Shown here: one piece after another, positions 2,071 to 32,600 of the stretch
How positions within the stretch are numbered: the first letter of the stretch is position 1
Layout: every line of letters starts with the position of its first letter
Virus record (IMG/VR): IMGVR_UViG_3300028883_000033
Span: 32,001 to 96,000 of that record
Reading direction: 5' to 3' (one strand)
DNA: 64,000 bases
DNA from: a virus
Position numbers and translations under genes: made by a program
Notes under the pieces: model-generated
What the model was told of the DNA's origin: nothing
Database searches by the model: none
The model's input: only the letters and a program-made list of their open reading frames with translations

Positions 2071-3741
2071 TTATCCGGCTTCACCAGCAGGAGGCGTTTC
2101 TCCACCAGCAGCAGCACCGCCTTCAGCGCCCATGCCCATGTCACCTTCGCCTTCCATTCCGCCAGCTTCCATACCCATATCCATTCCGCCTAGGCCGCCG
2201 CCCATGCCGCCTCCGCCGCCTAGGCCGCCCATGCCGCCCATCATGTCTTCGCCAGGACCATAAAGTTGACCGTAGTCCTCTTTACCGCCATCTGGATCAA
2301 GACCTTTTTCTTCACGCAGCATGCGTTCGTTGCGGATGATCTCTTCGTCGGACATCATCAGGAAGCGTTTCATGATGAAGCGTTTTGAGAAGTACTGGAT
2401 ACCGTCTGCGGATCCGTAACTTGACAACAACTGGCTATCAAGCTCGAACTGACGATACTTGCCGAAGTTAGAAGGTTCAGGTAAACGGAGACGATACATT
2501 GACGGATCAACGTATACATTGCTATCCCGCAAAAATGCTTTGAACTCTTCATCGAATACTTTTTCGAGACGACCTTGTAAGCGCATAATGTATAGAGCAA
2601 AACGTAGCTCTTGAATATATGCAACGCCCGCTTTACCATCATTAAAGATGCCGCCGCCATCCGCCTGCTCCAGCATGTATGATGCTGGGACTTTCAGACC
2701 ACGCCACACCTTCTTCTGAAAGTATTCCAGATCAGACAATTCACCAAGACCTTGACCGCCTGGTAATGTTTCAACTTTAGAGCCGCGACCATCAGGACGC
2801 GCCGCAAAGAAGAAGTCTTCTGACATTGAATGTGGGTTGTATACAGAATCAACTTCCATCTGGCCACCATGAGCGTTTGGAATTTTCTTCTGTTTGATTT
2901 CATTCTTGATTGTCTCAAGATACTGCTTCACGCGTTGTGGAGGCATCTTACCAACGTCAATATAGAACACACGACGTTCCGGGGCACGTTGAACTCGGTA
3001 AATGATGATTGCATCTTCAAGGAGTTCTTTCTGTTTATGTGCACGGTATACGGGACGTAATACAGATTCACCGAACGGAGCAGTGTCCGACATATCATCA
3101 TTTAACGTAAAACGAACGATGTCTTTAGCATCAATAATTTCAGTTTCGTATTGCTGCTCCTGCTTGGCACCGATTGGTAGACCATACCCTCCGGCTTTAG
3201 GTTTGTTCGTATTTTTCTTGACCTGCCATGCTACAACCTTGGTCGCATCGTCAGCGTCAACGATAGCAGCGATAACATTCTTAGGGTGAACAAACTGCCA
3301 TTTTTCGAATTGAGTTTTGCCTTTGCGGAAGAACACATCGCCGTATTTGACCGTCATGCGGGCTACGTCGAAGATTTTATTCTCCCAATCATGGATCTGG
3401 TTCCAGCGGCGAAGAGCTGCTTTCACTGTCAGCACAGCAGAGCTTTCAATGTTCTCTTCTTCTTCGGATAGAATATCAATGTCAATTGGGTCGTCAGTTT
3501 TTGGATTGTTCCCCGACATCTCTTCAGCGATTGTATCAAGCGCACGGGAAACCTCGACGTCGTTATCCATGAGATCATACTCACGGTAACGTGTCATGCG
3601 GGATGCTGACCCCTGAACAAGACGCTGATACCAGGTGTAATTGTTATACGCACCGGCATCCGCCATCTCCTGGCTGTCTGTCATCTTGACGTGACCAGGT
3701 TGCGGGGTTACAAATTTGAAATAACTAGTCCACTTTGCCAT
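2071..3741 (-). CDS. gp20: Portal protein (T4 gp20-like)
   Basis: LLEDAIIIYRVQRAPERRVFYIDVGKMP, EDFFF, GRGSKVETLPGGQGLG, ELRF motifs; Gly/Met low-complexity tail. Confidence 0.96.
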   Translation of the reverse strand: MAKWTSYFKFVTPQPGHVKMTDSQEMADAGAYNNYTWYQRLVQGSASRMTRYREYDLMDNDVEVSRALDTIAEEMSGNNPKTDDPIDIDILSEEEENIESSAVLTVKAALRRWNQIHDWENKIFDVARMTVKYGDVFFRKGKTQFEKWQFVHPKNVIAAIVDADDATKVVAWQVKKNTNKPKAGGYGLPIGAKQEQQYETEIIDAKDIVRFTLNDDMSDTAPFGESVLRPVYRAHKQKELLEDAIIIYRVQRAPERRVFYIDVGKMPPQRVKQYLETIKNEIKQKKIPNAHGGQMEVDSVYNPHSMSEDFFFAARPDGRGSKVETLPGGQGLGELSDLEYFQKKVWRGLKVPASYMLEQADGGGIFNDGKAGVAYIQELRFALYIMRLQGRLEKVFDEEFKAFLRDSNVYVDPSMYRLRLPEPSNFGKYRQFELDSQLLSSYGSADGIQYFSKRFIMKRFLMMSDEEIIRNERMLREEKGLDPDGGKEDYGQLYGPGEDMMGGMGGLGGGGGMGGGLGGMDMGMEAGGMEGEGDMGMGAEGGAAAGGETPPAGEAG

Positions 3742-3799: not shown

Positions 3800-6184
3800 T
3801 TATCCCGCAACTGGTGTCCAAATTAAACGGTTAGATTTAGAAGATCCTTTCCTCATCACTTCTTCGTGCTGATCTTGACTCTGAGCATTTCCTTTTTCGA
3901 TTGCGTTTAGAACGCCTTTATCTTCTTTGATGGCTTCCTGGATTTGTGTCATTCGAGCGATATCGTCTTTAACGGCAGTGAGGGTATCTAACTGTTTCTG
4001 TGTTAATTGATTTCCCATATCCTGCAGATCTTCATATTTCTTTTGTTCGGCATGCAGCTTCATCAGAACATCATCTAATCGGTGCCCCGTTCGTTCCCTC
4101 GTGGATAGTTGTGCAAATTCACTAACATCCATCTTTTTGCCGCTTGCCAACTTGAACTGTTCGGGGCCGAGTCCCAAGAATCCACTTTCTTGTGCTCTGA
4201 ACGTCGAAACACCCGTTCGTCCATACGTTTTAGCGATCTCGCTCATGACTTTGTCGTGAACAGCTTGTTCATGAGCTTGACGAACACGTTTTGCTTCAGG
4301 AGATTCAAATGGTTTGTCGTCGTCTTTATTTTTATCACTGAACATTGACCACAACATCGGACCGACGGTGGTTGCAATCAATCCAATTATACCACCACCG
4401 AGAACGATCCCAACTATTCTCCCCAACAACCCTTTGAGTAAATTGCCACCTAGGCCGGACATCAACTTTCCTGCTCCAGCTGCAAGGCCTCCAGCTGCTC
4501 CAGCTGCTACCAACGTTCCCAATGCTTTCATTATAGGGCCTGAGAGTAATGACTGAATCGTGTCGATTACGCCGAGCGTTTTACCGAGGATTTCATTCCT
4601 CTTTACAGCATGTTTGTCGATATCCTGTATCGCTTTATATTGTTCAGTATTGAGGTTAGCAAAGTCACTCTTCGGTCCAAGAAGATGTTCGAGCCCAGTC
4701 GTTTCTAACATCTGGGCAGTCATCATCTCAGACGCAAAACCTTCACCCATTCGCTGTCCTACAACTGTTTGTGCTTCTTTTTGTAGTTCCGCAAACCGCT
4801 CATAATCACCCTCACCACGCATACCACGCCGCATGATTACTGCCATCTCTTCGGCAGCTTGTCCGAATCCGAGAGCACCACCAACGGCCTGTAGTTTAGC
4901 CGCTTCTTTTAGACGTTCCTTAGGACTCTTTGCGCCCAACGCAGCCATCGCATCAACAACTTTCATTGCTTGCTCTTGCATCAGACCAAATGTGCGTAGA
5001 CGCAGAACGGTCTGTTGAATTTCCTGTGCATGTTGCACGCGTTGCTGACGGTTCAATCGGTATATTTGTTCGTTTACCGCTTGAGAAGATTCTAGCTGCT
5101 TGTTCATTTGGACAAACTCTTCAGCGGTCATGGAAAACACTTCATTGAATTGTTTGAACGTTCGGACTTGCGTGTCCATGAACGCTTGCATCTGAGCCTG
5201 GTTTCCAGCCCCAAAGCGCTGAGCCATTCCGAATGCACTTGCTTGAACGCGAACCGCATCACGTAACTCACCAGTCCATCCAGTCAATGCGAGTGATCCT
5301 TGTTCAGTTACCTCTCGGAAGCCATCCATTCCCAACCCGGATGCGTTAATGGTCTGGCGGTACTCTGCCATGTTTTGAGCCATTTCTTCGGGGTTCATAC
5401 CAGCCATGAACGCTGTCAATGAATCAGAAACTTCTGTTCCAAATCTTGCGGCAGGGCGGGCTGCTTCACCGAACGCATGTGTTAAGCCAGCAATGACGGT
5501 TCCTAGTGATGCGAACTTGTCAGTCAAACGCGACATAGAGTCGCCCAATCGACCCATGAACCCACCACGCATTTTATCATTCATTTTTTGCTGAATTTTT
5601 ATCCCTTCTTTCAGCTTTTTTTCGTACTTCTTGCGTTCAACGATTACTCGGTGGAGGGACTTGCCTTCTTGAGCAGCAAGGCGTTTTACCTGCGCTGCAT
5701 ACACTTGACGCTCTTCGAATGAGGCGGTATCCATCTTGTTCAGCAACTCAACAATCTCAGCTGCATTGGAAACTTCTTTGACGAACTTCATTACGTCTGC
5801 GTTTCCTCTGATAACCGTTTTACTGAACATCTCGGTTTGTTTGAGATGTTTCTGTAATGTCTCAGGAACCATCTCAAAATTCGCATAGTCCAGTTTATCT
5901 ACCGCATCCATGAATGATGATGCTAGTAATTTGGAGTGTATGCCGATATCCTTACTGAACGTGCCGATTCTCTGACTGGCGCTACTGAATGTCTTCATGG
6001 TAGCTTTATTCAATTCAGCCTCGGCTTTCTTGAGCTTCATCTCCTGAGCAATACGGTCAGCTTCCGTATCACTCAATTTGTCCATGGACTTTGATAAATT
6101 ATCCACGCCAATACCAAGGCTACCATCTCTGACGGCACCTTTGAGGACTCCAATCAATTCTTGCAGTTGTTGTTCTAAGGGCAT
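3800..6184 (-). CDS. Probable tail tape-measure protein (gp29 analogue)
   Basis: 794 aa, helical A/Q/M-rich, Gly-rich hydrophobic segments near aa 550-615, adjacent to hub chaperone genes. Confidence 0.65.
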   Translation of the reverse strand: MPLEQQLQELIGVLKGAVRDGSLGIGVDNLSKSMDKLSDTEADRIAQEMKLKKAEAELNKATMKTFSSASQRIGTFSKDIGIHSKLLASSFMDAVDKLDYANFEMVPETLQKHLKQTEMFSKTVIRGNADVMKFVKEVSNAAEIVELLNKMDTASFEERQVYAAQVKRLAAQEGKSLHRVIVERKKYEKKLKEGIKIQQKMNDKMRGGFMGRLGDSMSRLTDKFASLGTVIAGLTHAFGEAARPAARFGTEVSDSLTAFMAGMNPEEMAQNMAEYRQTINASGLGMDGFREVTEQGSLALTGWTGELRDAVRVQASAFGMAQRFGAGNQAQMQAFMDTQVRTFKQFNEVFSMTAEEFVQMNKQLESSQAVNEQIYRLNRQQRVQHAQEIQQTVLRLRTFGLMQEQAMKVVDAMAALGAKSPKERLKEAAKLQAVGGALGFGQAAEEMAVIMRRGMRGEGDYERFAELQKEAQTVVGQRMGEGFASEMMTAQMLETTGLEHLLGPKSDFANLNTEQYKAIQDIDKHAVKRNEILGKTLGVIDTIQSLLSGPIMKALGTLVAAGAAGGLAAGAGKLMSGLGGNLLKGLLGRIVGIVLGGGIIGLIATTVGPMLWSMFSDKNKDDDKPFESPEAKRVRQAHEQAVHDKVMSEIAKTYGRTGVSTFRAQESGFLGLGPEQFKLASGKKMDVSEFAQLSTRERTGHRLDDVLMKLHAEQKKYEDLQDMGNQLTQKQLDTLTAVKDDIARMTQIQEAIKEDKGVLNAIEKGNAQSQDQHEEVMRKGSSKSNRLIWTPVAG

Positions 6185-6213: not shown

Positions 6214-6254
6214 TATTTATGGACAGGATCTCCGCGTTTTTGTGAGCATAAATA
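6214..6254. promoter_or_regulatory. Divergent pair of late promoters (CATAAATA minus 6214-6221; CATAAATA plus 6247-6254)
   Basis: Identical octamers pointing at the tape-measure and gp26-like genes. Confidence 0.7.
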
Positions 6255-6285: not shown

Positions 6286-7098
6286 ATGGAAAACACCGAA
6301 TCAGCAGTGGAACAAAAGCCAACCAATCCTCTGCTTCAACGAATCAAAATGCCGGGTGAGACTTTCACTTTGCCATCAGGCGGTCTTTTCTATGAAGAAG
6401 GGGTCCTAGATCCGTCAGTGACTGGGGCTGAAATTCATGTTCATCCAATGACGACTCTGGATGAAATCACGATGAAAACGCCGGATCTACTGTTCAGTGG
6501 AAATGCCGTTCGTCAAGTATTTGCACGCTGCATTCCACAAATCCTGGATACGGACCGTTTGCTGACCAAAGATGTTGATTTTCTTTTAACATGTCTCCGG
6601 AAGGTATCATACGGCGATCAAATGAAGATTGAGTACACACACTCATGCCCAGATGCAAAACAACATTCATATAACGCTGACGTATCCCAGTTTATTCGTC
6701 AGTCAAAGCGAATCGATCCGACGACCGTATCTAGCATGTTCATGGTAGAATTCCCCAATGGACAGAAGGCTAAACTCCAGCCCGTAGTGTTTAAAGAATT
6801 CGTTCGTATCATGCAGACATTGAATGCTCAACACAATGACGAGTCGCCTGAGAACCTCAAGGACGAAGTTCTAGCTTCAGTTGCCGGAATGATCGTCAGT
6901 GTCGATGACACTGAAGATAAAGGCATGATCAGGGAGTGGCTGGAACAGGTTCCACCTCAATACATTACTATGATTAACAACAAAATTGAACAGGCGTCTG
7001 GTTGGGGAACTGATTTCGACGTTAAGGTGAAATGCAAGGATTGTGGTGAGGAGATCACAATATCAGCTCCACTGAACCCTCTGGCTTTTTTTACCTAA
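6286..7098 (+). CDS. Baseplate hub assembly chaperone (T4 gp26-like)
   Basis: TLPSGGLFY, PMTTLDEI, DVDFLL..LR..SYG, C-terminal CKDC, ends in FFT. Confidence 0.8.
   Translation: MENTESAVEQKPTNPLLQRIKMPGETFTLPSGGLFYEEGVLDPSVTGAEIHVHPMTTLDEITMKTPDLLFSGNAVRQVFARCIPQILDTDRLLTKDVDFLLTCLRKVSYGDQMKIEYTHSCPDAKQHSYNADVSQFIRQSKRIDPTTVSSMFMVEFPNGQKAKLQPVVFKEFVRIMQTLNAQHNDESPENLKDEVLASVAGMIVSVDDTEDKGMIREWLEQVPPQYITMINNKIEQASGWGTDFDVKVKCKDCGEEITISAPLNPLAFFT
7086..7092 (+). other. Candidate -1 ribosomal frameshift heptamer T TTT TTT
   Basis: GCT TTT TTT ACC TAA; -1 frame open from 7050 through 7134-7322 ORF. Confidence 0.6.
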
Positions 7099-7133
7099 CG
7101 CTGAAATTCGGCCAACCGCAGGACGTTCAGGAT

Positions 7134-7322
7134 ATGTTTAAAGCCCTTGGAAGAGAAGTTGAAGATTTGATTGATGATGCTATTCAGATTTCATACTTTA
7201 TGCGGGGTGCAATATCATACGAAGGTGTTCTTGAGAGAACACCAGGTGAACGTCAGCGAATTGGAAAATTTATTGAAAAGAGATTGGATGCGGAGTCAAA
7301 AAGCCCGCATCCAATCTACTGA
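7134..7322 (+). CDS. Small hub/tail assembly ORF, probable frameshift extension of upstream gene
   Basis: YFMRGAISYEGVLERTPGERQRI resembles C-terminal half of tail assembly chaperones; in -1 frame relative to 6286-7098. Confidence 0.65.
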   Translation: MFKALGREVEDLIDDAIQISYFMRGAISYEGVLERTPGERQRIGKFIEKRLDAESKSPHPIY

Positions 7323-7331
7323 GTTTCAGCG

Positions 7332-8924
7332 TTATAGTATCTGATACCCTTCCCGCCACCATTTCGGGATCATTGCGTATGCATTTTTGTACAGATGTGC
7401 CCATGATTGGTCAAGAATGTATACGTTGCCCCAATCATCGGATGAGCGAACAACACGACCACCACCTTGGATGATATCAATCAGAGCACGGCGCTGATAC
7501 CATTCAGATGACATTTCCATCCGACGTTTGATCCACTGATCCCCAAGATACCCATAAGGGACTTTAACGAAGATGGCGAAACGGCCAAGCTCATCCTTCA
7601 GATCGAGACCCTCGGTACTAGATGGTGAAATCAGAACAGATGGTTTTGGATCACCCTGGAATGCTGTGATAACGGAATTACGATCATCACCGGAATCTGG
7701 GTTGTGGTGATACACTCTGTGTGACAGATCCAGCTCATCAACCAACCATTTTGCAATCTCGAAATTGCCAGTATGAATAATACCGGATTCCTTTTCATGC
7801 AGCTTGCATAATGTCGTAATTGATTCAAGCATATTAGCACGACCGTCTTCGTTCTCAGGCTGCTTCCACTTAGCGTTCATGCGAGCTTTTGGCATGTAGT
7901 AAACAGGACGGTTTTCTGGATCAAATTCAGATGACAGAGAAAGGTATGCCGCATCTTCTTCTGGAATGCCAAGGTCTTCACAGAATCCATCTTTATTGAG
8001 AATGGTGGAAGACATGAACAGGAATTTGTCTGCCATCGGCATTACGATGCGTCTAAATGAATACTCACCTGTCAGCCGCTTGAACTGGAACATCGTTTTG
8101 TCCCATGTGAGAACAAACTGAGATGTCAGTCCTTCAATTGGCATCAATGACATCTCCATCGCCTCATCAGCATGATCCTGCAGGCCAGCAAATTCACGCA
8201 ACTTGCGGATTTCAGACTTGGTTAAGTCAGTTCCTGCCTTGTCAAAAAGCGGTTCCACCTCATCCTCAAGTTTTTTGAGTGCGTCATTTAATTTGGGTAC
8301 ATATTGTTCTTTGAGCCATTCATGTGCCTTGACAATGTCTTTGAATGGTTTGTAGGGAAGTGCATACTTAGTGCACCGGCCTTCCATTACTTTGAATGCA
8401 TCAAAATCAACCAAATGCTGTTCCAGAGTATGGCACTCGTCCATTACCATGACACTACGTTTATTAAATGTCTTGGTGTATGCAAAGGACGTTAATGCGA
8501 GTTTGTAATTCAACACGGTATCAGATGCTACCTGAGCCAGCTTCTTTGCTTTTTGGAATGGGCAATTAGGGCAACGTGGCTTTACAATACCGCCAATGTC
8601 GCAAGTCGTTTTCTTTGGCTGACAAGCGTAATTTCCTTTGCCATACAAAGATGCCATGAATACCGGATCTATGTCTCGGACTGAGTTCTCGTATTGCTCT
8701 TGGAGGATACGCTGTGGGGTAAGGATGTATGAGTCGCCTCGTGTCTTTTGATGACGAGACCCCCTGTATTGGGAATATGTCAGACCTATATTCGATTTAC
8801 CAGCTCCAACCGGTGCTTCAAGTAATAGGTACTTGGCGTCTTGTTCTGCTAACCAATTAAGTGCTAGCTTCTGGTTTTCACGTGGCTCATATGGAAAAGG
8901 CCAAAAATCTAATATATCTGACAC
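7332..8924 (-). CDS. DinG/XPD-family SF2 helicase with Fe-S cluster
   Basis: Q motif PRENQ, EAPVGAGKS, four Cys (C-x6-C-x9-C-x2-C), DECH, EGLDL, QGGGRVVRS; start revised to GTG 8924 after GGGGAG RBS. Confidence 0.9.
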   Translation of the reverse strand: MSDILDFWPFPYEPRENQKLALNWLAEQDAKYLLLEAPVGAGKSNIGLTYSQYRGSRHQKTRGDSYILTPQRILQEQYENSVRDIDPVFMASLYGKGNYACQPKKTTCDIGGIVKPRCPNCPFQKAKKLAQVASDTVLNYKLALTSFAYTKTFNKRSVMVMDECHTLEQHLVDFDAFKVMEGRCTKYALPYKPFKDIVKAHEWLKEQYVPKLNDALKKLEDEVEPLFDKAGTDLTKSEIRKLREFAGLQDHADEAMEMSLMPIEGLTSQFVLTWDKTMFQFKRLTGEYSFRRIVMPMADKFLFMSSTILNKDGFCEDLGIPEEDAAYLSLSSEFDPENRPVYYMPKARMNAKWKQPENEDGRANMLESITTLCKLHEKESGIIHTGNFEIAKWLVDELDLSHRVYHHNPDSGDDRNSVITAFQGDPKPSVLISPSSTEGLDLKDELGRFAIFVKVPYGYLGDQWIKRRMEMSSEWYQRRALIDIIQGGGRVVRSSDDWGNVYILDQSWAHLYKNAYAMIPKWWREGYQIL

Positions 8925-9008
8925 CGAAAAGGTCTCCCCGAATAGTTCTTTAATTTCCGAGATTTTACCGCAAAACTCCCGCAAAGACCACAAGAAAAAT
9001 TTCAGGCA

Positions 9009-9285
9009 GAATAGGAAATACTCACTGCGTTCGCATTTCCTATTCGTCGTAGAACTAATCAATACCTAAGTTTTATTAAAGTATGACCGCCCCCTTTATG
9101 ACCCCAAGTGTCAAAGGAAATACGGGCTCGTAAATCGGTATCCCCTGTCCAGTTTATCGCTCCGAGTACTGGCAAACGGTTGGGTCTCTCATAAACTGAA
9201 GCACAGTAATACCCACAACTGCTTCAGACCTCACACTATGGTCTCCCTATTAGTGGCGGCGCTCCTCATAACGTAGAGGCGGACG
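9009..9285. ncRNA. Candidate structured non-coding element (RNA or origin-like DNA)
   Basis: Largest intergenic gap; at least six stems readable by eye; no family assignable. Confidence 0.35.
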
Positions 9286-29600: not shown

Positions 29601-32600
29601 TCCGAATTGATCCGGTTCGGTTTATGTACCTAGCGTTTGGCCCTGAATACCATCAGATAGCTGGATTGTTGATCGATAAGCGTCTTGAACAGGTGATGTC
29701 GCATGCTAACACTGAATTCCATGGCGATATCATTAATGACAAAGAAGTACTGAAATTCAATGGTATTAACCAGTGGTATGTCAACTATCTCCGTTATACT
29801 GGAGTGGACATTAGTATGTCTGACTTCCGTACATCGTGGACTCAGTGGACGGCACCTATGATGTATCAGTTCTCTTCGTTCATTGATACACCATCATTGG
29901 ATGTAGCTCATCGCCAGGTATGTATTAGTGAGTTTGATTATAGAATAGCATCTAAGCGCTCTCCAGGAGCTGAAGACTACTGGTTAGATTCGTTTGATAT
30001 CTACACTCTATCAATTCCACCAAAACTTGCTCGGTATGATAATGAGTTCCAGTGGAAGTTTGAAATCACAACGAAGCCTCCATATACGAAGACGGTATCG
30101 TATTATGATGTTCAGAATTATCAGTTCTATGCTGATCCTGATACTGATCTATGTACGATGTACTCGTGGCTAGTTGATGATATGAGCTTCTTCAACGACA
30201 CGTTTACCGTTCGTGGCGATCAGACAGAATTCTTTGCAGCAAACAGAACGTTTGATGTTGTTGAGTCTACAGACAATAACGGAACGTATACTATTATTAG
30301 TTCCGTATACAACGCTGTTACGGATCAGACTTTGATCCAAGTAAGTGAAAACGTTACTGGTGTTGTAAAAGATGGACGCATAATTCTTAACTATAGAGCA
30401 TTGCCATGGCAGACGGGTGAAGCTGTGGTGCTGTCAACGCATGAAACATTGCCAGCTCCGTTACAAATGGATAATACTAATGGTGTATACTATTACTTCT
30501 TCATTCGCGAAACCCACAACACTTTCCGTCTAGCAACAACCCGAACGGAAGCTGAAGCTGGCAATTATGTCAACATTACAACGAAGGGAAGAAGCGACCA
30601 TTATGTAGGTAAAGTCCAGACGACATTCACCGACGGCGTTCAAACTTCTAAATTCTGGCGTCATTATGCACTCGACACTGCAACAGTACGTACGTTTATG
30701 CCACCATATGACGTGTCCGGTTTCCAGGGCATCATTAACATCATAGATGGATACGAACAGTACACTAAGGATCAGGGCTGGAGATTTAACGTTGATGGAA
30801 CATTGCGTGATCCAGGCAACACAACATATGCCGTAAACTGGCAGCACGAGCTGCGTCGGTTCATTCAGTATAACTACAACCTGCGTGCTATTCGCACAAA
30901 AGTTGAAGATCGTTTCCCTGTGACTGTTAACGTTGGTTCTAATGTTTGGACGATTACTGATAACAGTCGCCCATACTTCATTACTGGGGATCCTGTAACA
31001 ATATTCTCTTCGAATGGTGTATACCCACCTCCGTTGGTTCGAGGCGGTCGTTACTACATGATTCGTGATGAAATCTCCAACTTTAGATTGGCGGCAACAA
31101 AAGCTGATGCTACTGCTGGGGTATCAATCGATATAACGGATGATGCTGGAACGGAAAAACTGTTCCTAACTAAAGCGGCAATCCTAACACAGAATGCTCC
31201 TAGGTTTGAACTTAACCCATTCAGAAATGCAGTTTGGTTCCGTCCGGAGCGTGGTATTGTTTCCAACTTACTAACCGGTCCTACAGATGATGTGTTTACA
31301 TCTCAGTTAATGGTTGATCAGTACGGTCGTCCAATGAACCAGGACGCTGTTCGCATCTTCCGTGAAGATAAAGAAACAAAGATCACCATAGAAGATCAGC
31401 TTGATAATGATGTGGAACCAATCCGCATAACTCAGAATCCGTACAACTATATTCATCTTGGTGCAGTTCATTTGTTTGTTGATACGTATGAACACGTAAT
31501 GGTGTTTAACGATAACACAACCGAAGGGCAGTTACTATACGACCCATTCGTTGGATTGAACTTGACCAAGTTCGAGATGTTGTTCAACAGGCAGTTGGAA
31601 TTTACACAACGTCCAAACGTTGGTGGTCAGTATTTGAGTACGTTCTATAACCAAGGCGCAGATCTCAATCGCAACATTGAAGCGAGCATTGAAGATTTGC
31701 GTAATCTATATGACACCTATCAAGTCATTGAGGCCAACGAACTGGTACTACAATCTCGTAAGACGATGGGGTATGAAGGTCGCGAAGACTACCTCGATAA
31801 CCTCAACCTGAACGCAAAATCACAGTTTGCATTCTGGCGTGGTCAGATACAAACCAAAGGTGCGATGAGTTCCGTTAATGCATTCGTTAACTCCCGTCGA
31901 TTCATTGATGCTAAGGTAGATGAGTTCTGGGCATATAAGATCGGTGAATTCGGTTCATCCCAGGATAAAGATTATATCGAGATGTGGTTGAAACTTAATG
32001 ACGCACGAAGTGATGAACTCCGACTGCAGTTTGTTAGTGAGGATGATTTGTGCGACTCTGGTTATGCTGCTAACGTATATGATTCTGCTTGCGGTTTTGC
32101 TTTCCCAATTTCCGGAACGGGTGTGTTGGTTGTTGAAAGTGGATGGACTGGAATTTCAATCACTGATTCATCTCGCTGGGTTAACTACCCTGATCAGTTG
32201 GCTGAGTTGAATGATAACAACGGTATCCTGTATTTTGATCTGCGGTTGCGTCCTGAGAAGATGCTTGAAGTAAGTTCGGCAGATCCTAGCGACATCATTG
32301 TTAGTACAGGATCACCAGCAACAACGGACAACTACATTCGTCACAACTTTGCTTGTGACTTCGTGACGATTACTGGCAACCTAGGTTATCCAGCAAATCA
32401 CTACATCGACAGTACTGTAGGAAGTGTGATGTATCCTATGGCGGCGGACGGTCGTAGTTCAACAGTGTCTGAATATATTCCGTTCTCTAATATGGTCCGT
32501 GTATTTAAGGGAACCTACAATACTTCAGATCCAGCATATGATCCTTCTAATCCAAGCCCTTCATTCATTGGCGAGGAGATGATCAATGGTGTTGATTATA

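Follow-up and report, generated by a model that had tools for sequence, protein, structure and literature searches.

Tail assembly chaperones that are made in two forms by frameshifting are regarded as nearly universal in long-tailed phages, and we know of none that has been assigned in phage T4. In the myovirus P2, the tail chaperone pair E/E+E' is said to arise from a -1 shift on T TTT TTG, an account credited to Christie et al. in 2002. The G/GT pair of lambda and the conserved -1 shift in the tail chaperone genes of long-tailed phages have been described (Levin 1993; Xu, Hendrix, Duda 2004, 2013; via PMC5009743), and recoding at the 3' end of the gene, which gives two forms of the protein, is the hallmark of this class of chaperones (PMC5009743). 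For T4, both gp26 and gp51 appear in the list of hub assembly chaperones; gp51 is needed for assembly but is absent from the particle (PMC3004832). The feature proposed here is of a known kind, a -1 frameshift in a tail chaperone gene.

The DNA analysed (the window) is a stretch of 64,000 nt, positions 32,001 to 96,000 of the IMG/VR virus record IMGVR_UViG_3300028883_000033, which comprises 147,644 nt and is 43% complete by CheckV. Its nearest isolated relatives, all of them jumbo phages, are Ralstonia RsoM2USA and Xanthomonas Xoo-sp13 and XacN1, with ~40% protein identity. A single PF12322 gene (6286-7098) was found in this jumbo phage fragment (Table 1). Its 270-aa product matched Pfam PF12322 T4_baseplate with 54.6 bits (cut-off 24.5) over residues 69-265 and phrog_150 "baseplate hub" with 1.1e-18. 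In the family alignment, C250, C253 and F268-F269 are invariant (C-terminal CxxC and Phe-Phe); the first cysteine motif of the family, CPxC, is degenerate in the window protein (H-S-C-P-D, with a single Cys). The 3' end of the ORF reads GCT (7084-7086) TTT TTT ACC TAA, and the heptamer on the Phe codons ends 6 nt before the last base of the zero-frame stop, a distance that amounts to 6-45 nt across the homologues. In the -1 frame, a TGA at 7047-7049 is followed by an open frame from 7050 to the stop at 7320-7322, and reading after a slip would run Y-L-T-L-K-F-G-Q-P-Q-D-V-Q-D-M straight into a 62-aa ORF (7134-7322). The predicted products have 270 aa and 269 + 76 = 345 aa. The first-pass annotation had located the in-phase T TTT TTT at 7086-7092 and a -1 frame that is open from 7050 and leads into the ORF at 7134, all of which was correct when the letters were read again; the sizes it had expected, ~270 and ~345 aa, agree with those computed from the predicted products.

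Table 1 Features of the PF12322 locus and its neighbours in the window.
Feature	Position	Strand	Remark
Zero-frame ORF, short form, 270 aa	6286..7098	+	PF12322 (T4 gp26/gp51 family); ends ...NPLAFFT*
In-phase X XXY YYZ slippery heptamer T TTT TTT	7086..7092	+	on invariant Phe-Phe motif
Zero-frame stop TAA	7096..7098	+	two codons past heptamer
-1 extension, 76 codons (Y-L-T-L-K ... P-I-Y) + stop	7092..7322	+	conserved helical C-terminal domain
ATG in extension, codon 15	7134..7136	+	subgroup-conserved Met; sole candidate for independent initiation
Probable tape measure protein, 794 aa	3800..6184	-	divergent from PF12322 gene, 101-nt gap
gp20-type portal gene	2071..3741	-	PF07230, 4.4e-97

Like lambda G/GT, the locus would yield a short product and a longer one whose C-terminal extension is added when ribosomes slip by -1 at a heptamer close to the 3' end. 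The gene lies beside the probable tape measure gene, and as in lambda-type genes the pattern is kept across very divergent sequences. Unlike lambda gpG, which has ~140 aa and belongs to another family, the window protein is a PF12322 protein of ~270 aa with Cys motifs, and its model resembles solved chaperones only with Z-scores of 5-7. Furthermore, the window gene is divergent from the tape measure gene, whereas the lambda-type gene is flanked by the tube and tape measure genes; the PF12322 gene of the window does not have this position and no tube gene is found upstream of it. With P2 E/E+E' the locus has in common the contractile tail, the type of U-rich heptamer and an extension that is short. 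P2 E, in contrast, is small and is encoded in the FETUD tail operon, and no sequence relationship was detected between the window protein and P2 E.

Upstream of the gene, at window positions 6247-6254 and 32 nt before the ATG at 6286, lies CATAAATA, which is one mismatch away from the consensus of the T4-type late promoter, TATAAATA; such a late-promoter-like sequence would suit late expression of the putative chaperone gene. At the other end, a perfect 13-bp inverted repeat (AGATTGGATGCGG / CCGCATCCAATCT, 11-nt loop, 7281-7317) is located within the last codons of the extension and stops 15 nt short of the end of a convergent helicase gene (7332-9062, minus strand). This repeat may be a bidirectional terminator without a T-tail; it was not flagged by a simple terminator scan.

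The heptamer was followed through a homologue set of ~240 loci in all, comprising the named jumbo phages and 230 further loci from three IMG/VR scans; a 12-sequence alignment (A1) was too divergent for the locus scan. In ten out of ten records of proteobacterial jumbo phages (RsoM2USA, Xoo-sp13, XacN1, RAS14, Phosso, Atu_ph07, vB_Ec-M-J, PA5oct, RaK2 and the window), T TTT TTT or T TTT TTC lies in phase at the Phe-Phe motif, and the -1 extension has 71-82 aa in each. Among 186 distinct zero-frame proteins of 230-300 aa, the C-terminal FF motif was present in 179, and 177 of these have a complete in-phase T TTT TTY, compared to an expectation of ~21%. In the rest of the same genes the third position is T with a frequency of 0.34 and TTT/(TTT+TTC) amounts to 0.62, and therefore an in-phase heptamer should arise by chance with a frequency of ~0.21. 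The wobble base before the Phe codons is T in 178 of the 179, and the preceding codon is one of eleven that end in T (AGT, AAT, GAT, TCT, CAT, GCT, ACT, CGT, GTT, GGT and TTT), which stand for ten different residues. The conservation of the heptamer is well beyond chance. Because the loci share ancestry, fewer independent events underlie these counts than the numbers suggest; identity among the homologues, however, drops to ~22% in the body and 13-20% in the extension, and at these identities synonymous sites are saturated. All seven homologues without FF kept a U-rich site, an open -1 extension and the conserved domain, with sites such as TAT TTT ATG, CTT TTT TCA, CTT TTT TAA and A AAT TTT. 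Homologues that lack the T-run or have stops in the -1 linker had been named beforehand as the finding that would refute a frameshift, and the outcome over ~240 loci favours the frameshift.

Non-canonical sites with an open -1 extension were seen at L022, L029, L054, L060, L084, L111, L116 and L117, ~45 nt before the zero-frame stop. At L084 (CTT TTT TAA) the slip would be right at the stop codon, at L054 (CTC TTT TCC) no perfect re-pairing is possible, L111, L116 and L117 have A AAT TTT, and at L029 the site is G TTT TTT T, whose phase does not allow tandem slippage of the tRNAs, with the extension retained. These loci are natural variants useful for studying the requirements for the site.

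A conserved T-run could also act during transcription: the polymerase would stutter on it and produce mRNAs with one additional U (or two fewer), and no ribosome would have to shift. Such transcriptional slippage would fit a site that is homopolymeric, that is lengthened by the T in the wobble position and that reaches 9 Ts in RsoM2USA, and it would also explain why L029 keeps its extension behind an out-of-phase run. However, in 137 of the 179 homologues the run ends in C (T TTT TTC) and comprises only 6 Ts. Known transcriptional slippage runs are ~9 long, longer than six Ts. In addition, the A AAT TTT at L111, L116 and L117 fits X XXY YYZ and is not a homopolymer, and the heptamer is in phase nearly everywhere. 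Because of the phase of X XXY YYZ, the predominance of six-T runs and the non-homopolymeric variants, tandem -1 ribosomal slippage is favoured. Transcriptional slippage appears improbable overall; it remains possible for longer runs such as that of RsoM2USA and for the out-of-phase L029.

Behind the heptamer, a complete -1 extension of at least 55 aa (typically 70-82 aa) with one conserved helical domain was present at 173 loci, where complete means that the extension lay wholly within the fetched DNA. An ungapped alignment of 77 nt from the heptamer onward spans 26 loci, and the column entropy over extension codons 5-20 was 1.52, 1.22 and 1.81 for the three positions of the -1 codons, which is a coding pattern. 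In P0160, a relative in which body and extension are fused in frame, the extension (residues 266-341) was predicted to form a four-helix bundle with a pLDDT of 72-93.

Alternatively, the T-run may reflect no more than codon choice at Phe-Phe, and the 62-aa ORF may be an ordinary second gene whose translation starts at ATG 7134, perhaps coupled to the stop at 7098. This ATG has AGGA motifs 2 and 12 nt upstream, and the small downstream ORF is annotated by many gene callers and in GenBank records. The nearer motif (7128-7131) is poor as a Shine-Dalgarno sequence because it is only 2 nt away from the ATG, and the first-pass annotation had rightly called it weak. A homologue with its own ATG does exist: in Bacillus phage HSE3 (vB_BceM-HSE3, L010 3191-3413) the extension is represented by a separate 56-aa ORF in the +1 frame. 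There, the +1 frame stays open on its upstream side through the end of the PF12322 gene, and Phe-Phe is encoded as GAG TTC TTT, which is not slippery; the arrangement is either a split gene pair or +1 recoding and differs from the solution of the proteobacterial phages. Elsewhere, separate initiation is difficult to reconcile with the extensions themselves. In 55 of 173 there is no ATG before the domain core and in 29 there is neither ATG nor GTG nor TTG, the latter including PA5oct, whose extension has no Met anywhere, and RaK2 and RsoM2USA, in which none precedes the conserved core; no downstream ORF is annotated in the records of these three phages. Where a first ATG is present, its position varies between extension codons 2 and 26, and the 14 residues before Met-15 of the window extension are conserved with coding periodicity. 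The ATG at 7134 encodes a Met that is conserved within its subgroup and does not represent a conserved start. Phe-Phe does not by itself demand a slippery run either, because T4 gp26 and HSE3 encode it as TTC TTT without a heptamer, and natural in-frame fusions join the two parts at exactly the same point. Two ordinary genes are, therefore, a highly improbable explanation; some independent initiation in the window cannot be excluded since the ATG at 7134 is in frame.

The in-frame fusions came from a profile of 96 extensions (A4), which matched 767 of the 1.84 billion proteins searched, natural in-frame fusions among them. About 15 of the best 150 matches have 319-351 aa, with the domain right at the C-terminal end of a PF12322-like body. 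When longer proteins with the extension were sought by a word index, none came back; this empty result is a matter of sensitivity, as the later exhaustive profile search found them. With P0160 as query, no viral contig was found. Five in-frame loci could be recovered as DNA; they have a single Phe codon at the junction and no slippery run (e.g. TAT TTT CGG or CAA TTT AGA), which is the outcome expected of a run that is 2 nt shorter. All five records with an in-frame long form contain a second PF12322 paralogue directly beside it. At L168, a 927-aa tape-measure-like gene on the minus strand is followed by a 350-aa long form and a 283-aa short form, the latter ending where FF would be, and at L174 a short-like gene directly precedes the long form. 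As these phages encode a short paralogue besides the in-frame long form, it seems that both are needed. RsoM2USA, XacN1, PA5oct and RaK2 have one PF12322 locus per complete genome and T4 has two; as far as can be read from these genomes, a phage has either one PF12322 gene with a slippery site or two without. That a long-form gene was merely broken by a homopolymer sequencing error or a recent frameshift mutation is barely credible, for although homopolymers invite sequencing errors and other phages do encode an in-frame long form, the same frames recur in ~170 distinct loci from independently sequenced isolates and metagenomes, finished genomes included, and the in-frame forms differ by a non-slippery junction and an extra paralogue.

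As a separate observation, the 927-aa gene of L168 (3156-5939, minus strand) and the tandem of long and short PF12322 genes are arranged head to head, and the C-terminal segment of the 927-aa product looks peptidase- or lysin-like when the translation is inspected by eye.

T4 encodes two members of the family. In gp26, FF is kept as GAG TTC TTT, the protein stops three codons later and gene 25 is next; neither a slippery run nor an extension was found at T4 gp26, which in stopping three residues past FF is like the short form of the window. T4 gp51 (249 aa) matched PF12322 over residues 1-201 with 3.9e-52 and phrog_150 over residues 3-248, and gp51 homologues carry a second precomputed domain label, PF28602. 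The relation of gp51 to the long product became visible only by profile-profile comparison: hhalign of a profile of 105 conceptual frameshift products against a gp51 profile gave a probability of 96% and an E-value of 4e-9 over 217 columns, collinear through the junction, and the extension profile alone matched the last 38 residues of gp51 (E 1.5e-5, probability 80%). A plain hmmsearch with the HMM of the frameshift products against T4 gp26 and gp51 gave weak and fragmentary matches only. Thus, that T4 gp51 is the natural in-frame equivalent of the long product, of the same Pfam family as the window protein and collinear with the frameshift product including the C-terminal domain, is moderately but not overwhelmingly supported. 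The first-pass annotation had called the window gene gp26-like; the family is right, gp26 alone is too narrow, as PF12322 comprises gp26 and gp51 and it is gp51 that is collinear with the long product. Unlike the window, T4 has two diverged, separate genes that are divergently transcribed and have no slippery site, and the T4 proteins share only ~17% identity with the window protein.

The 794-aa neighbour had been described as a tape-measure-like gene head to head with the pair, and this description (3800-6184, minus strand) held through an intermediate: the protein had no direct match in Pfam or PHROG, it matched RsoM2USA_376 by BLASTP (E 4e-12), and RsoM2USA_376 matches the tape-measure family phrog_167 (1.5e-9). 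No direct similarity of the neighbour was found to T4 gp29 or to the Asteriusvirus tape measure protein. The order of portal gene, tape-measure-like gene and divergent PF12322 gene is common to the window, RaK2, PA5oct and Asteriusvirus, and two of the records of the latter three annotate the middle gene as tape-measure-like. On these similarities, the neighbour is probably a tape measure protein. In the Xanthomonas phages the upstream neighbours of the PF12322 gene differ. Bacillus phage HSE3 has the order sheath, tube, PF12322 gene, 56-aa extension homologue (E 4e-6) and tape measure, in which the PF12322 gene occupies the canonical place of a tail chaperone gene. In T4 we also noted that the start of gene 28 lies 56 nt before the end of gene 27 (L011 7349-7404) in another frame, just upstream of gene 29, which encodes the tape measure.

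The AlphaFold2 model of the 270-aa window protein had a pLDDT of 93.2. When it was compared with 48,161 chains by VIA-align, the three best matches were 3fgx (Z 5.9), 2ob9 (Z 5.9) and 3klu (Z 5.2), on residues 9-119; the match to 2ob9, the tail assembly chaperone of HK97, had an rmsd of 6.3 over 89 aligned residues. YqbN (3klu) was found again, with Z 6.8, on the second half of an independent model of a long form. These matches are no more than supportive, because chance arrangements occur in the range of Z 5-7. The VIA hits of the long-form model were dominated by helical hairpins of a generic kind. A Foldseek search of the model against the PDB gave no match, sequence-profile searches of the PDB gave nothing relevant, and the window protein did not match the Pfam families of tail assembly chaperones. 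The halves of the body (~9-119 and 120-245) each resemble the YqbN/HK97 chaperone fold and each is followed by a Cys motif; the models suggest that the PF12322 body arose by internal duplication.

At the RNA level, a conserved stimulatory hairpin was considered and dropped: RNAalifold found no consensus structure in 26 aligned downstream regions, and the 53 nt downstream of the window heptamer fold no better than shuffled sequences (z 0.27). At many individual loci a hairpin does follow at a distance of 6-8 nt (mean z -1.65); the window is without one. The nearby zero-frame stop is the only other feature that recurs around the heptamer.

In sum, we have little doubt that recoding at the PF12322 locus is real, and a programmed -1 ribosomal frameshift that gives a 270-aa and a 345-aa form is its likely basis. 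This is deduced from sequence comparison; for none of these phages has the long product been demonstrated by experiment. According to the proposed frameshift, most ribosomes would terminate at TAA 7096-7098 and release the 270-aa protein, and a minority would slip back by one base on U UUU UUU (7086-7092), where both tRNA-Phe can re-pair with UUU. The slipped ribosomes would continue with TAC CTA ACG to 7320-7322 and add a helical domain of 76 aa, giving 345 aa. The frequency of the slip would set the ratio of short to long form. It may be low since U_UUU_UUU induces only weak shifting in E. coli constructs (PMC5009743), and by analogy we infer that a weak slip would suit a low ratio of long to short form, as in lambda (1:30). 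T4 and some uncultured phages would use two paralogues instead, a short gp26-like and a long gp51-like protein.

With regard to function, the two forms are inferred to act in the manner of lambda gpG and gpGT. The tape measure protein that is encoded next door would be held by the body common to both forms, and the rarer long form would dock the complex to another component of the tail or hub via its extra domain. A pair of the G/GT type would be expected to have a short form that binds the tape measure protein and a long form that bridges to the tube protein, with neither in the virion; for PF12322 only the absence of T4 gp51 from the particle and the listing of gp26 and gp51 as hub assembly chaperones bear on this, and indirectly. 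A tail or tape-measure assembly chaperone is the most likely function, held with somewhat better than even confidence and by inference only, binding included. Of the G/GT-like reading made in the first instance, the frameshift is supported by ~240 loci; the chaperone function was not raised above inference, drawn from the two-form recoding, the probable tape measure gene next door, the gene order in HSE3, the paralogues, folds of modest Z and the listing of T4 gp26 and gp51 as chaperones.

A frameshift join was annotated in none of the 13 GenBank records inspected, and the C-terminal domain is absent from several annotations because it has no start codon. Our literature search, which covered few subscription papers, found no report of a frameshift in genes of the gp26/gp51 family (PF12322), so that a prior mention is possible, and within the same thin coverage it found no report of T4 gp26/gp51 as the two-gene equivalent. 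We lean slightly towards the view that PF12322 proteins, annotated as "baseplate hub subunit" or "hub assembly catalyst", are the missing tail assembly chaperones of T4-type and RaK2/PA5oct-type giant myoviruses, that both forms are essential and that their ratio is set by a -1 frameshift in giant phages and by two separately expressed paralogues in T4. In T4, gp26 and gp51 would then be the short and the long member of the chaperone pair. If true, this would account for gp51 acting as a catalyst, not as a structural part, when hub and tape measure are assembled, and about a hundred giant phage genomes (RaK2, 121Q, PA5oct, XacN1 and Atu_ph07 among them) would be mis-annotated at the PF12322 gene. 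The family would offer a natural comparison of translational recoding with gene duplication as ways to make a short and a long form.
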